DNA of 7,660 nt from a virus (taxonomy: Duplodnaviria; Heunggongvirae; Uroviricota; Caudoviricetes). The position numbers and the translations under genes are program-made. Positions 3,625-7,660 of the stretch are shown one piece after another; positions within the stretch are counted from its first letter, which is position 1, and every line of letters begins with the position of its first letter. The stretch is taken from the IMG/VR virus record IMGVR_UViG_2703718802_000005. One strand, 5' to 3'. The notes under the pieces are model-generated. The model did not search any database, had not been told where the DNA came from, and worked only from the letters and a program-made list of their open reading frames with translations.

Positions 3625-4059
3625 CTACTGACCAGGATAGAGCTGATGTGCCGGGTCAAGCCAGACAATATGGAATACATTACCGATGAAAAATCCATGT
3701 ATGCGACCATATTCATTGCGCGATATGGCAAATTGATAAGGTGTATAACTCTGAAACTGTTCATTCAAATGCTGAAATCCCTTAGGTTCAGATGTAGTTT
3801 GCCAATCAATCGGATGTGACTTCAACGAACCACCGCGATCGGTGGTGAACTCTCGTTCAGTCATAGTGGAAAGGTCTTTGAGGCGGTCTAACACCTTGCA
3901 AAAATAAACAGGATTCTGAGCGCTGAAAGTAAATTTCTCATGCGCCGCATCGATATACCGAAAAGAAAAGTTGATGGTCGTTATGCCTGAACCTGTTCCC
4001 CCAGGCACTATTTTTGTTTGCGAGGGTGCAATCTTCGACGCCCTGATTCTTTTCGCCAT
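3625..4059 (-). CDS. Toxin-candidate partner of the Panacea-domain antitoxin-like gene; 144 aa, fold not recognised
   Basis: Track ORF; ATG at 4057-4059 lies 2 nt after the TAA stop (4062-4064) of the upstream same-strand gene, a translationally coupled antitoxin-then-toxin layout. No family recognised by eye; notable C-terminal segment GRIHGFFIGNVFHIVWLDPAHQLY and N-terminal Gly-rich PGGTGSG. Confidence 0.6.
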   Translation of the reverse strand: MAKRIRASKIAPSQTKIVPGGTGSGITTINFSFRYIDAAHEKFTFSAQNPVYFCKVLDRLKDLSTMTEREFTTDRGGSLKSHPIDWQTTSEPKGFQHLNEQFQSYTPYQFAISRNEYGRIHGFFIGNVFHIVWLDPAHQLYPGQ

Positions 4060-4061
4060 AT

Positions 4062-4517
4062 TTAGGAAGCCATCGAACGATAAAACTCAGCCGTTACACT
4101 TTTATCAATAACATTCTTGCACGGCGCATCTGATGGAACCCCTTCACGGGCCTCCAGCCACGGCTTTTCTTGGTGCGTCATCTGCTCCAGCTCATAAGCT
4201 GTATAACCGCCAAATACCTCATAGATTTCCTTTAGATGCTTTGACACATTCGCAGGTAACTCAGGGCAGGCAATCTCTTCGTCTATTGAGCGCCATTTGT
4301 AATCTGCAAATCTGGTATACAAATCTCTGGCTACAGGGCCATGTACCCATGCTTCAAACTTGTCAGCAACCAGTTCTTCGCCATCATTCAGCGCCATGAA
4401 CCAAGCATCAGCATAGAACACCATTTTTTGCAGTTTCAGCGGCGTCATAACATCCCCATGCTCTTGAGCAAAGCAAAGCAGGTAATCCGCTACGCTGTTA
4501 AGGGTTGTAACTGCCAT
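4062..4517 (-). CDS. Panacea (DUF4065) domain protein, PanA/SocA-type antitoxin-like, 151 aa
   Basis: Track ORF 4062..4748 in frame; start placed at ATG 4515-4517 because AGGAG sits 8 nt upstream, whereas the ORF-opening ATG at 4748 has no ribosome-binding site. Product contains TPLKLQKMVFYADAWFMAL and FEAWVHGPVARDLYTRF, matching the conserved core I recall for Pfam PF13274 (DUF4065/Panacea; GepA-like 'phage-associated protein'). Confidence 0.8.
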   Translation of the reverse strand: MAVTTLNSVADYLLCFAQEHGDVMTPLKLQKMVFYADAWFMALNDGEELVADKFEAWVHGPVARDLYTRFADYKWRSIDEEIACPELPANVSKHLKEIYEVFGGYTAYELEQMTHQEKPWLEAREGVPSDAPCKNVIDKSVTAEFYRSMAS

Positions 4518-4838
4518 TATCCAATCTCCTGCCGTATGTTTTCGTCTATAACTGTCCACTACCGTTAATAATCGCATATAACCACGGGTATTGCCCATCG
4601 TAAAATGCCATTTAAAGATTCTGCGTGATGGCTCACCATCCACCGCGCAAGATACCCGGTGCGTTTGGCTGATAATCCGCAATTTGGTTGAAACCGTCCT
4701 GGAAACCTCAAGTTTGGAAACCAGCGACTTGCATCGTAGCTTTGCCATTCGGCGGTCATAGTTACTGCTATATCCCTTTATTGGCGAGACCTGCGAGAGG
4801 TTTTGTTGTTCGAATATATAAAGGTGAATAAAGGTAAT

Positions 4839-5250: not shown

Positions 5251-5280
5251 TGCTACGCGCGCGCGTACTTGTCCCGAAAT
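5251..5280. repeat. Copy 1 of dispersed ~25-bp repeat with palindromic alternating-CG core
   Basis: TGCTACGCGCGCGCGTACTTGTCCCGAAAT; core TACGCGCGCGCGTA is a perfect palindrome. Same motif recurs at 6643-6670 and 6931-6956. Confidence 0.85.
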
Positions 5281-5321
5281 ACCAGAAACCGCCAGCCAGA
5301 GGATGATTTCCCTCTGGTGGT

Positions 5322-5603: not shown

Positions 5604-5640
5604 TTCTGCCTCTCAGATTATATAGATAAGCAAAAAGGTG

Positions 5641-5667
5641 TTGGTTCAGTTGGTTCAGTTGGTTCAA
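5641..5667. repeat. Three tandem 9-bp direct repeats TTGGTTCAG (third copy TTGGTTCAA); iteron/operator-like
   Basis: Directly visible at 5641-5649, 5650-5658 and 5659-5667, in the divergent intergenic region between the PerC-like gene (minus) and the RHH-like gene (plus). Confidence 0.85.
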
Positions 5668-5709
5668 TTTGTAAAGATCGTTGTTTTTATTATGTTTTTT
5701 CTAAAATAT

Positions 5710-5760
5710 TGAACCAACATCAACTCATTTTGAACCAACACAGCCCAGCTCTGAACCAAC
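5710..5760. repeat. Three copies of TGAACCAAC (reverse complement of the tandem repeat core) at exact 21-bp spacing
   Basis: Copies at 5710-5718, 5731-5739 and 5752-5760, i.e. two helical turns apart. Separated from the tandem array by an AT-rich spacer (5668-5708, includes GTTTTTATTATGTTTTTT). Confidence 0.85.
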
Positions 5761-5814
5761 AACACAGCGATAGCTTTGTGATTGGCCCGTTATTTTCTGG
5801 CTGATATTTGAGCG

Positions 5815-5845
5815 TATAACAGTGTTATACAGTGATATACTGTAT
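5815..5845. promoter_or_regulatory. Operator-like dyad upstream of the RHH-like gene
   Basis: Perfect inverted repeat ATACAGT-GATAT-ACTGTAT (5827-5845), preceded by a direct half-site repeat TATAACAGTG (5815-5824). Ends 18 nt upstream of the ATG at 5863, where an autoregulatory operator would sit. Confidence 0.4.
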
Positions 5846-5862
5846 GGATATTACTCACTGAT

Positions 5863-6318
5863 ATGGTCTTTGCAATGAGCAAATCTAATCTGGTCGCGTT
5901 CCGCATCCCATCTGAATTGCAGGATGAGTTTAATCGGTCTGTTCTCGCTTCTGGAGGGGATAAAACCTCCTGGCTTGTTGATGCGATTCGCATGAAGCTG
6001 GGACAGCCGGAAAAGTCTATTGATTCACGAATGCTTGGGCTGGTGGAGCGCATGGAAAAAGCTGCTGCGTCGCTTATTGCCGGAAAGCCGAACATCCCAC
6101 CAAAGCCATATAACGAAACGGCAGTTATAAAGATCATTGCCGATACCATCCGACAGGGATTTGATAATGGGCGTGTGATAGCTGAACGGATCAATGAAGC
6201 AGGCTATCAAACAAAAGCTGGTAAAGCGTGGGATAAAGATATTTACAGCGCGTGGAAGCGTCAGGGAAGCAATGCTGAAAAGTTAAAAGCGGTGATTGAT
6301 TGTAAGGTCAGCGTATAA
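5863..6318 (+). CDS. Hypothetical protein with N-terminal ribbon-helix-helix-like DNA-binding region (151 aa)
   Basis: Track ORF. N-terminus VAFRIPSELQDEFNRSV...KTSWLVDAIRMKL has the strand-helix-helix pattern of CopG/Arc-type RHH domains (pattern-based). Weak Shine-Dalgarno, so start is uncertain between ATG 5863 and ATG 5875. Opposite-strand ORFs 5790..6194 and 6025..6210 are judged spurious. Confidence 0.55.
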   Translation: MVFAMSKSNLVAFRIPSELQDEFNRSVLASGGDKTSWLVDAIRMKLGQPEKSIDSRMLGLVERMEKAAASLIAGKPNIPPKPYNETAVIKIIADTIRQGFDNGRVIAERINEAGYQTKAGKAWDKDIYSAWKRQGSNAEKLKAVIDCKVSV

Positions 6319-6397
6319 ACATGAGTGCCCATTGGAAAGCTGCTTGGGCCAATACCTTTATACACCAGCAGGTGGTGACGATAGGTGAGGATCAGGA

Positions 6398-6619
6398 ATG
6401 AAAGGCAGAACGCCACACATTGAACATCAAGCCAACCACTTCTCGGATGTTCGCAATGAGATGATTGCCATTCGCGGTGATATGCACGGCTTGGAGCGTC
6501 GAATTATTGATAAGATTGATGAAAATAGAGATAAGGCCAGTGAAAATCAAAAGTGGATCATCGGCCTGTTGATTTTATCAATTCTTATCCCGCTACTTAT
6601 CGCATTGGTCACAAAATGA
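6398..6619 (+). CDS. Small tail-anchored membrane protein (73 aa), XhlA/holin-like architecture
   Basis: Track ORF; GAGGA about 6 nt upstream of the ATG. Charged N-terminal region followed by a single C-terminal hydrophobic helix WIIGLLILSILIPLLIALV. Assignment is by architecture only, not sequence family. Confidence 0.55.
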   Translation: MKGRTPHIEHQANHFSDVRNEMIAIRGDMHGLERRIIDKIDENRDKASENQKWIIGLLILSILIPLLIALVTK

Positions 6620-6642
6620 ATATCCAATGTGTATGCTGTCGA

Positions 6643-6670
6643 TGCTACGCGCGCGTACTTGTCGCAAAAT
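6643..6670. repeat. Copy 2 of dispersed ~25-bp repeat
   Basis: TGCTACGCGCGCGTACTTGTCGCAAAAT; palindromic core TACGCGCGCGTA. Begins 24 nt after the stop of the 6398..6619 gene. Confidence 0.85.
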
Positions 6671-6901
6671 ATCAGGCAAAGGCCAGATTCAGAACGTCGT
6701 GATAACCACCAGCACAACATGAGATGTCATGTAACGCGATTTATCACGTCAGATACATGTGATTGGTGTACCCGCATAAAACATTGTCATAGCGCGTCCT
6801 GTGCGCATATACGCCGATAATCAACACATCACCACCACTCTGTCTCATGTAGAGAACACTTTTATGGTATCCCCCGCCATCGTGTGCGTACTGGTCGGAC
6901 G

Positions 6902-6925
6902 CAGTTGCAAAAAATTTTGCAACTG
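6902..6925. repeat. Perfect 11-bp inverted repeat CAGTTGCAAAA-AA-TTTTGCAACTG
   Basis: Directly visible; no T-run follows on either strand, so more likely a protein-binding dyad than a terminator. Immediately precedes repeat copy 3. Confidence 0.8.
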
Positions 6926-6930
6926 ATACC

Positions 6931-6956
6931 CCTCGCGCGCGTACTTGTCTCGAAAT
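6931..6956. repeat. Copy 3 of dispersed ~25-bp repeat
   Basis: CCTCGCGCGCGTACTTGTCTCGAAAT. Degenerate relatives GTGCGTACTGGTC (about 6884-6896) and GCGCGTACTGTAAC (about 7017-7030) lie nearby. Confidence 0.8.
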
Positions 6957-7142
6957 TGGTGTTTTGCTGTGGCAGTGATATCAGAAAAATCTTCCTGTTT
7001 CACATAAAGCGGATATGCGCGTACTGTAACGACCCCATCAACTGGGAGCGGATTTGAAATCCCGACCCAAGCTATGTACCAAATGCCATGTCTTGGATAT
7101 ATGATGATTGCCATTCTAAACAAAGCTAAAGGGAGGGTTGGT

Positions 7143-7493
7143 GTGAATGCTCAGGCTGTCATCATGGTTTTACTTGGTCTGATTGTCGCAAAACTATATC
7201 CAGACTGGTGGAAAGGGGTATTAGCAACTGTCGCCATCTATTTGCTTTTATCCGTCGTTAAGCGATCGTTCGTTAAGACCGTAAATCAAGCAAAACGTTT
7301 CTCATTTAAGAATTTAATAAACTATATTACTGGGCTTATTTTTTGCCTTTCAATTTTGATCGCTTCAGCTTTTTTGCCCGTATCAATAGCTAATTTTTTT
7401 GGCGCACCATATGAGGTAGGTTATCTATTCTCTGTTTTTTGTCTTGTTCTTTCCCTTCTTTACCTATGGATGAGAGCAAAGAACAAAAATTAG
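7143..7493 (+). CDS. Hypothetical multi-pass membrane protein (about 116 aa from the preferred start)
   Basis: Track ORF 7074..7493. Preferred start is in-frame GTG at 7143, preceded by GGAGG (7132-7136) with a 6-nt spacer; alternatives are ATG 7074 (no SD) and ATG 7164. AT-rich; product has about four hydrophobic helices (AVIMVLLGLIVA, VLATVAIYLLLSVV, ITGLIFCLSILIASAFL, YLFSVFCLVLSLLYLW). Stop TAG at 7491-7493. Confidence 0.5.
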   Translation: MNAQAVIMVLLGLIVAKLYPDWWKGVLATVAIYLLLSVVKRSFVKTVNQAKRFSFKNLINYITGLIFCLSILIASAFLPVSIANFFGAPYEVGYLFSVFCLVLSLLYLWMRAKNKN

Positions 7494-7660
7494 CCATCCA
7501 TGGCTAACCAGTTATTGAGATTCTTTTTGTGATGCCTGTGCGACTCTGGTGAGCGATTGTGTGACCGTACTGATCGCTCTGTCATATGCTGTGCTACCTT
7601 TTGGCGTATTTGCCAGACGTAACAAGGCATTTCGGTAAGCGTAAACTGACCGCCGTATGT

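Follow-up and report, generated by a model that had tools for sequence, protein, structure and literature searches.

A Probable P22-Type Exclusion Arm in an EcCIMP1-like Satellite Island of Escherichia coli, with a sieA-Slot Occupant That Is Not Homologous to SieA

The Locus and Its Features

The virus record IMGVR_UViG_2703718802_000005 (IMG/VR) provides a stretch of 7,660 nucleotides (the window), the right part of which (5863-7493) carries three small genes, termed ORF1, ORF2 and ORF3 (ORF, open reading frame). The window represents the far arm of a phage-inducible chromosomal island (PICI) of Escherichia coli that resembles EcCIMP1. An initial annotation, made from the sequence letters, had listed three plus-strand frames at 5863-6318, 6398-6619 and 7074-7493; all three are present as described, with corrected starts for ORF1 and ORF3. 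Loci used for comparison are referred to by L numbers. The arm has the following features:

5258..5285: repeat copy 1, downstream of perC, 1.4 kb off
5814..5845, plus strand: overlapping operator-like palindromes GTATAAC-N3-GTTATAC and ATACAGT-N5-ACTGTAT, 30-60 bp upstream of the ORF1 start
5875..6318, plus strand: ORF1, with a ribbon-helix-helix (RHH)-like N-terminus and a helical, helix-turn-helix (HTH)-like C-terminal domain; occupies the Mnt position of the arm
6285..6639, no strand: variable slot A (last 11 codons of ORF1 plus ORF2), a cassette exchanged between islands
6398..6619, plus strand: ORF2, 73 residues, tail-anchored, with a good Shine-Dalgarno sequence (GTGAGGA)
6639..7142, no strand: island-specific non-coding module (the gap), with the translation start signals of slot B at its 3' end
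6648..6675, minus strand: repeat copy 2, reading ATTTTGCGACAAGTACGCGCGCG on the minus strand; abuts the right boundary of slot A
6884..6896: degenerate repeat copy
6902..6925, no strand: perfect palindrome CAGTTGCAAAA-AA-TTTTGCAACTG, 24 bp, with 11-bp arms and a 2-nt centre
6934..6961, minus strand: repeat copy 3, whose minus-strand translation AKHQFRDKYAR compares with AKHEDFRDKYAK in the small terminase subunit (TerS) of phage Kapi1
7143..7493, plus strand: ORF3, 116 residues from a GTG, four predicted transmembrane (TM) helices; one allele of slot B
7488..7509, minus strand: hairpin between the convergent stops of ORF3 (7493) and the gene 16 homologue (7512), terminator-like on the minus strand
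7512..7660, minus strand: 3' end of a gp16-family DNA-ejection gene, which runs off the window; its translation ends in ...QASQKESQ before the stop

Two start codons were reassigned. For ORF1 (open frame 5863-6318), the likely start is the ATG at 5875, giving 147 residues, because all 41 aligned homologues begin with MSKS... at this point. The open frame of ORF3 (7074-7493) allows for 139 residues, but the likely start is the GTG at 7143 (116 residues), which lies 5 nt after a Shine-Dalgarno sequence, AGGGAGGG, at 7130-7137. This start is favoured because homologues of 116 residues exist and because a cassette breakpoint is found at 7146. The 139-residue version is unlikely, since other copies have a 2-nt indel at 7136-7137 that would disrupt its frame. 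With ORF3 starting at 7143, the distance to ORF2 is about 520 bp (6620-7142), as the initial annotation had it.

The Satellite Island

EcCIMP1 is a PICI of E. coli strain MP1. Its helper, the P22-like phage Kapi1, was shown experimentally to induce and transduce the island, and Kapi1 lysogens gain superinfection immunity from it, even though PADLOC and DefenseFinder detect no known defence system in EcCIMP1 (Pick, Stadel and Raivio 2025, PMC11773190). Helper-dependent excision and transfer have been demonstrated for EcCIMP1 alone (PMC11773190).

Islands of this type are found in many E. coli genomes. They begin with an integrase at tRNA-Thr (beside proA), followed by genes for an AlpA-like HTH protein, an antirepressor and a TOPRIM/DUF927 primase. 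The remainder consists of P22 gp20- and gp16-family ejection-protein genes, ORF1 to ORF3, perC and more cargo. The island of the window has the integrase at tRNA-Thr, AlpA, the DUF927 primase and perC, is devoid of capsid and terminase genes, and is 96% identical to EcCIMP1 at the DNA level across the segments in common. The mobile element on which the initial annotation had placed the three genes is this PICI.

Gene Order of the P22 immI Arm

In P22, gene 16 converges on sieA, with 22 bp between them. Going upstream on the sieA strand, one meets the sieA promoter, a stretch without coding sequence, orf59a and mnt, which encodes the RHH repressor. This order recurs in the window: the RHH-like ORF1, ORF2, ORF3 and then the converging gene 16 homologue at 7512-7660, for which the annotation in L001 and L002 is injection or P22-gp16 family protein. 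In E. coli, true P22-like prophages have genes for Arc, an Arc/Mnt-type protein, a protein of 123 residues, an ORF2 homologue and a small membrane protein, the last of which converges on gene 16. The ribosome-binding site and GTG of their slot-B gene are embedded in the context CTAAGGAGGTTGGTGTG, which is identical to that of ORF3.

The best explanation is that the arm and the ejection-protein genes derived together from the immI/sieA region of P22-like phages. The satellite would have imported a whole phage exclusion arm, which it uses as a cassette hotspot. In this view, the region is a P22-type immunity/exclusion arm taken up by a satellite, with the sieA slot held by a non-homologous occupant. 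For this explanation as a whole (a captured P22-type arm, three independent units and a separate non-coding module), we estimate a probability of roughly 55%.

ORF3 and the sieA Slot

By comparison with sister islands, slot B (7146-7492) is exactly the coding sequence of ORF3. In L002 and L005, the slot holds a protein of 204 residues with four TM helices, which has its start and stop codons in common with ORF3. It matches P22 SieA with an E-value of 7e-8 and is 33% identical (E-value 7e-9) to SieA of E. coli HS1, which was shown to exclude P22-like phages (PMC10883804). It bears the RYPGEA motif (as NRYPGEAR) and matches the SieA-like PHROG 7745 at 3.5e-4. Judged by its sequence, this allele is a SieA homologue. 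Among 5426 complete E. coli genomes, from which all genome counts were taken, the SieA-like allele occurs in 103 and ORF3 in 229, in 227 of which the ORF3 frame is intact. In prophages of E. coli S88 and Yersinia enterocolitica, relatives of ORF3 take the sieA position. Like ORF3 itself and P22 sieA, they are located between gene 16 and gene 9/immI of a P22-like element and converge on gene 16. Another relative lies beside the gp16 gene in an island from Edwardsiella tarda.

The description of the last gene as AT-rich and encoding four helices agrees with its composition and with prediction: ORF3 has 37% GC (44.7% in the window), a Kyte-Doolittle scan reveals four hydrophobic segments, and four helices are predicted by AlphaFold2, although at low confidence. 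Lysine and arginine residues cluster in the central loop and the C-terminal tail, a charge placement that follows the positive-inside rule. The family is tiny, with 15 representatives among 1.84 billion, and has a conserved N-terminal helix (LLGLIVAKLYP) in common. Searches of Pfam, PHROGs, NCBIfam and PADLOC with ORF1 to ORF3 returned nothing useful above threshold. When the three proteins were compared with 50,697 phage records by tblastn, ORF1 and ORF3 had no match, and ORF2 had weak matches to Klebsiella phages only.

Superinfection exclusion is the best reading for ORF3 because the gene is in the sieA slot, because it converges on gene 16, and because it is replaced, codon for codon, by a SieA homologue. 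ORF3 would thus be a four-helix inner-membrane protein expressed from the sieA slot. It would most likely protect the cell by interfering, as SieA does, at the inner membrane with the gp20/gp16 conduit through which incoming P22-like phages deliver their DNA, a mechanism that we infer from its position and from allelic replacement only. The assignment of ORF3 as a non-homologous exclusion protein that acts, by analogy, on this conduit is tentative, and we put it slightly below even odds. Functionally, ORF3 would belong at the SieA position, while being outside the SieA family.

Several results weigh against this interpretation. No similarity of ORF3 to SieA of type A, B or C was detected (hhalign probabilities of 0.5% and 0.1%; BLASTP E-value of at least 28 for HS1 SieA), ORF3 does not match PHROG 7745, and the cytoplasmic loop of SieA with its FxRYPxEAxxFNK motif is lacking. 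The AlphaFold2 model is poor (predicted local distance difference test, pLDDT, of 60), which precluded a fold search. Promoter prediction gave no sigma-70 promoter ahead of ORF3, and a PADLOC scan of ORF1 to ORF3 had no match. EcCIMP1, the sole island studied by experiment, carries none of the three genes. Elsewhere, the sieA slot houses other unrelated small membrane proteins and lipoproteins, so that position alone leaves the function unfixed.

Such occupants are varied. In true P22-like prophages and in Kapi1, further unrelated small proteins are encoded in the slot (L040 6291-6620; L041 6291-6518; L034 32628-33170). These include a protein of 109 residues with a single TM helix at the N-terminus and a coiled-coil region, a two-TM-helix protein of 75 residues, and small secreted proteins that bear signal peptides. 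In EcCIMP1 (strain MP1, L013 12632-13330), the place of ORF3 is taken by an opposite-strand gene for a 232-residue protein with a lipoprotein signal (lipobox LAGC). This protein is a candidate for the unexplained superinfection immunity conferred by the island.

The sieA slot is thus a diverse, uncharted reservoir, which offers three exclusion candidates (ORF3, the SieA-like protein of 204 residues and the EcCIMP1 lipoprotein). Should ORF3 exclude P22-like phages, it would be an independent way to block the gp16/gp20 DNA conduit, which it could then help to study.

The Gap Is an Island-Specific Module

The gap (6639-7142) is found in 545 of the E. coli genomes, with 95-99% identity among them. 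It is non-coding because the copies differ by indels of 1-2 nt. In true P22-like prophages it is absent, and ORF2 and the slot-B gene are just 57 bp apart. EcCIMP1 retains 6639-7068, with a different slot-B gene on the other strand and no ORF3. The absence from prophages and the retention in EcCIMP1 together indicate that the gap is an island-specific module rather than a control region for ORF3. They also contradict the view of the initial annotation that the gap may control a potentially harmful membrane protein.

A more general version of this view would have the gap as a long regulatory leader or promoter region, by which the slot-B gene is conditionally controlled and in which the repeats serve as sites for a regulator of the island or the helper. 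The gap is located directly upstream of slot B and bears its ribosome-binding site, it is conserved in 545 genomes, and it contains the repeats and the perfect 24-bp palindrome, all of which would fit. Nevertheless, the prophages express the slot with the short upstream distance just mentioned, EcCIMP1 keeps the module despite the opposite orientation of its slot-B gene, one repeat copy is 1.4 kb away (downstream of perC), and no promoter was predicted. We consider a leader function improbable, although it fares best among the alternatives.

The gap had also been described as packed with a dispersed repeat and palindromes. The repeat is real. CGCGCGCGTACTTGTCnCnAAAT is found in three 28-nt copies, at 5258, 6648 and 6934, and a degenerate one starts at 6884; the 13-nt core has 4 matches against 0.10 expected, a number reached by none of 200 shuffled sequences. 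The palindromes, however, were overstated. Stems of 9 bp number three (0.04 expected), and the single standout is the one at 6902-6925. It lies 10 nt from repeat copy 3, and where it has AA at the centre, other islands have TT, as though it had been flipped. An Rfam scan of the window had no credible match, and RNA folding of the gap does not exceed chance on either strand (z-scores of -0.25 and -1.3).

Similarity of the Repeat to the Helper terS Gene

On the minus strand, the repeat reads TTTnGnGACAAGTACGCG. In the Kapi1 genome, it occurs once, as an exact match at 18875-18892 in terS, where it represents codons F58-A63 of the Sf6-type TerS gene of that phage, in the part for the DNA-binding domain. 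All three repeat copies have their best local alignment to the Kapi1 genome in terS (18873-18892 for copy 2), with scores reached by 0-2 of 150 shuffled sequences. In copy 3, the similarity reaches AKH-FRDKYA. P22, prophages with a P22-type TerS, and the islands of Salmonella and Klebsiella all lack the motif.

In P22-like phages, the packaging (pac) site is inside terS. For Sf6, Leavitt et al. are said to have mapped pac in 2013 to the part of terS that encodes the DNA-binding domain. The repeats of the gap, which would be copied from a short segment of the Sf6-type small-terminase gene in Kapi1, may serve as pac signals. We propose the repeat as a candidate pac mimic of the helper, which is possible but, from the sequence match, less likely than not. 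Weighing against it, only 17-19 nt match terS, and the significance of this match was in part assessed post hoc. A BLAST search with the 18-nt repeat as a short query against all phages was uninformative, because the E-value limit is out of reach for a query of this length. If true, a pac mimic would account for the packaging of a satellite that lacks a terminase gene.

It is tempting to combine the two proposals. ORF3 would then represent an inner-membrane exclusion class that is unrelated to SieA and interchangeable with it at this locus in P22-like phages and satellites, while the module and the perC-side repeat would be terS decoys that enable Sf6-type headful packaging of a satellite devoid of a terminase or Rpp gene. 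Taken jointly, this is unlikely. The module is present in about 10% of complete E. coli genomes, and for EcCIMP1, one of the islands concerned, the superinfection immunity is genetically unexplained and the packaging mechanism is unknown. Our analysis offers candidates for both, that for packaging being the three-copy motif common with the helper terS.

Related possibilities were rejected. Neither a terS gene in decay nor a hidden ORF makes up the gap, as the TerS similarity extends over only 8-12 residues and the copies differ by indels of 1-2 nt. The tandem P22-like prophage of strain TUM9803 was considered as a carrier of the repeat, but the repeat is absent from it and its TerS is P22-type. 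In the E. tarda island (L038 5008-5508), an ORF of 166 codons with a weak match to Terminase_2 (small terminase) is located between the far island end and the ORF3 homologue, at about the place that the repeat-bearing gap takes in the E. coli islands. A relationship between this ORF and the gap was rejected, as there is no similarity.

The Three Genes Assort Independently

ORF1 is present in 361 and ORF2 in 169 of the 5426 genomes, compared with the 229 that have ORF3. For the INDEPENDENCE of the three genes, all combinations of ORF1, ORF2 and ORF3 occur. ORF3 is found without ORF2 (L003, L004) or without both ORF1 and ORF2 (L006, L036), ORF2 with another last gene (L005, L040-L042), and ORF1 without ORF3 (L005). 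An obligate module of three genes is thereby excluded, as is a toxin-antitoxin pairing. This includes a type II toxin-antitoxin pair of ORF1 with either ORF2 or ORF3, for which an obligate, conserved pairing would be expected. The three genes are independently swappable pieces, and the initial proposal of a single module has to be abandoned.

A rival reading along these lines would have ORF1 control one or two harmful membrane proteins in an abortive-infection or toxin system, with ORF3 as a RexB-like or holin-like depolarising effector and ORF1 as an RHH antitoxin or regulator. It draws on the fact that RHH proteins are commonly antitoxins or repressors and on the resemblance of ORF3, a small protein with four TM helices and a basic tail, to lambda RexB and to holins. 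Genes of the Abi family are found in slot A of sister islands, and an ORF2-like protein occupies a cI-operon position that is typical of exclusion genes. However, the S88 and Yersinia prophages also carry ORF3 in the absence of ORF1 or ORF2, its PADLOC search was negative, and the operator motif of ORF1 was not found near ORF3. A Pfam scan of the ORF3 family with E-values up to 1 retrieved no RexB family, and Phage_holin_3_6 was the only holin family (2 of 14 members, E-value 0.063). Such a system is thus decidedly improbable, and more so than a leader function of the gap. The likeness to exclusion or abortive-infection genes, which had been noted together with the module, survives in part: exclusion is the best reading for the last gene, and the slot that holds ORF2 contains Abi or ImmA/IrrE genes elsewhere, but these are not parts of one module.

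ORF1, a Putative Autoregulator

ORF1 is a core gene of the island family across Enterobacterales, with 64-82% identity and an intact frame. Its description as RHH-like is weakly supported. Residues 7-49 align with residues 8-50 of P22 Mnt (hhalign E-value 0.004, a weak match with a probability of 8%), and the RHH_1 profile matches one of 42 family members (E-value 0.074). For the protein from the window, however, there is no Pfam match above threshold. AlphaFold2 predicts two helices for the monomer at low confidence, and one source names an ORF1 homologue 'Arc-like DNA binding domain protein'. That the RHH assignment leans on weak scores is a further point against the overall interpretation.

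The half-sites of the palindromes at 5814-5845 are invariant in E. coli, Salmonella and Klebsiella, while spacers and flanks diverge. From the aligned sequences, this looks like a phylogenetic footprint typical of an autoregulatory operator. A second copy of the motif was not found anywhere in the window within 2 mismatches. ORF1 would be a dimeric RHH-type DNA-binding protein with an additional HTH-like domain, which probably represses its own promoter via these palindromes.

ORF2 and Variable Slot A

ORF2 is tail-anchored, as had been predicted, with one hydrophobic segment at residues 54-72 of 73 (Kyte-Doolittle scan). The preceding part is coiled-coil-like and is predicted to be a cytoplasmic head. 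The protein matches PHROG 6324 (unknown function) at 3e-11 and, weakly, a holin PHROG at 0.004. No Pfam match, XhlA (PF10779) included, was found for it at E-values up to 1. XhlA matches are sub-threshold in 5 of 13 family members, with a best E-value of 4e-4 in an alignment that included Kapi1_061, a protein that is itself annotated as XhlA-like. Kinship of ORF2 with Kapi1_061 was rejected, as the identity is 22% and the Kapi1 protein lacks a TM helix.

A homologue with 83% identity is encoded in P22-like prophages between an Arc-family gene of 85 codons, in the Mnt position, and the sieA slot. A more distant relative follows a cI-like repressor gene in a lambdoid immunity region. These two contexts, the Mnt-side arm and the cI side, suggest that ORF2 is an accessory gene expressed in lysogens.

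The breakpoints of slot A (6285 and 6639) emerge from comparison with L003, L004, L006 and L013. In place of the ORF2 cassette, these loci hold an Abi gene (L003), genes for an ImmA/IrrE peptidase and a hypothetical partner (L004), or an HTH/alpA_1 gene (L006, L013). ORF2 would thus be a tail-anchored cargo protein in an exchangeable accessory/defence slot.

Two further alternatives concern the nature of the genes. ORF1 to ORF3 might be neutral hitch-hiking or decaying cargo without a selected function in the island, as could be suspected from the fast turnover of the slots and from the neighbouring gp16-like gene, a pseudogene in many islands. This is quite unlikely, given that ORF1 is conserved with an intact frame across Enterobacterales, that all but two carriers have an intact ORF3, and that cassette exchange keeps start and stop codons exactly. 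That ORF2 and ORF3 are lysis remnants (an XhlA-like holin accessory and a holin) without an exclusion role is very unlikely: the weak holin PHROG match, the XhlA matches in the ORF2 family and Phage_holin_3_6 in two of 14 ORF3 relatives all score far below family thresholds, the annotations of the island in L001 and L002 include neither an endolysin nor a spanin, the lysis cassette of P22-like phages sits elsewhere, and the genes are on the same strand as, and directly downstream of, the Arc-family (Mnt-position) gene rather than in a late operon.

Other Features of the Island and Its Relatives

(5640..5764, no strand: iteron cluster between perC and ORF1, just outside the region that contains the three genes)

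The iteron cluster consists of 3-4 copies of GTTGGTTCA, an AT-rich spacer and 3 copies of TGAACCAAC in inverted orientation, with a spacing of 21 bp. Each island has a second cluster (84-90% identical) just downstream of the primase gene (L001, L002, L013 and L007; coordinates L001 24256-24342, L013 19296-19403 and L007 14419-14505). The cluster in the window looks like a second origin-like (ori-like) site. Klebsiella phage P12620-1 matches the iteron block at 77%.

On the minus strand, 3625-4748 codes for a Panacea/SocA-domain protein (ORF of 228 codons; 151 residues as annotated), followed by a MAG6450-like protein of 144 residues. The pair is probably PanA-type toxin-antitoxin cargo and is missing from EcCIMP1. 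The region 51-2159, which is carried by few islands only (e.g., in strain F8), contains ORFs of 462 codons (plus strand) and 277 codons (minus strand), for which NCBIfam and PADLOC give no match.

In strain TUM9803 (NZ_CP135671; L001, L037), the island and a complete P22-like prophage are arranged in tandem at the same tRNA-Thr site. The prophage is devoid of an immI/sieA region and has the tailspike gene directly after gene 16. The gp16-family ejection gene of the island is annotated as truncated or as a pseudogene in many strains (L001 20348-22163, L003, L004, L036) and is intact in L002 and L006. Relatives of the island in Klebsiella (L010-L012) and Salmonella (L007-L009) have kept ORF1 at the far end. 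There, gp20 and gp16 are replaced by a single large gene, which codes for 903 residues in Klebsiella (with a TMP_3 tape-measure-like match) and for 989 residues in Salmonella (no Pfam match). The Klebsiella islands additionally hold an Imm_superinfect gene (PF14373). These satellites seem to take in DNA-delivery and exclusion genes suited to the type of their helper.

Comparison with Known Systems

EcCIMP1 and the island of the window have in common the integrase at thrW, alpA, the DUF927 primase, ejection-protein genes and perC, as well as the conserved module (6639-7068) and all three repeat copies. They differ in that EcCIMP1 has alpA_1 instead of ORF1 and ORF2 and the 232-residue lipoprotein-like gene instead of ORF3. 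Its gp16 analogue is of another type (lytic transglycosylase), and it lacks the Panacea pair. The paired iteron clusters of the island are reminiscent of the ori/crr pair of P4.

The pac sites of P22 (in gene 3) and Sf6 (in gene 1) are within terS, and the repeat equals a stretch of the Sf6-type terS of Kapi1; the sequence compared was that of terS. Unlike these sites, the three copies in the island lie outside any terS gene.

ORF2 resembles the XhlA family (PF10779), which consists of tail-anchored phage membrane proteins, in having a coiled-coil head and a single C-terminal TM helix, but it is encoded outside any lysis cassette. Like the Arc and Mnt repressors, ORF1 has an N-terminal beta strand followed by two helices (FR(I/V)P...), palindromic sites overlap its own upstream region, and it occupies the Mnt position. 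The similarity is, however, sub-threshold, and the C-terminus of ORF1 is a recombinase-like HTH (HTH_62-like), in contrast to the coiled-coil tetramerisation helix of Mnt.

The closest parallel is that between ORF3 and P22 SieA. Position and orientation are the same, including the distance of about 20 bp between the stop codons of the slot gene and gene 16, an arrangement that in the window includes the hairpin at 7488-7509. Both genes are downstream of an RHH or RHH-like repressor gene and a small ORF, and ORF3, like SieA, is predicted to be a small multi-pass inner-membrane protein. The differences are that ORF3 is shorter (116 versus 162-212 residues), that it is encoded by a satellite and not by a phage, and that an island-specific insert of 500 bp separates it from ORF2.

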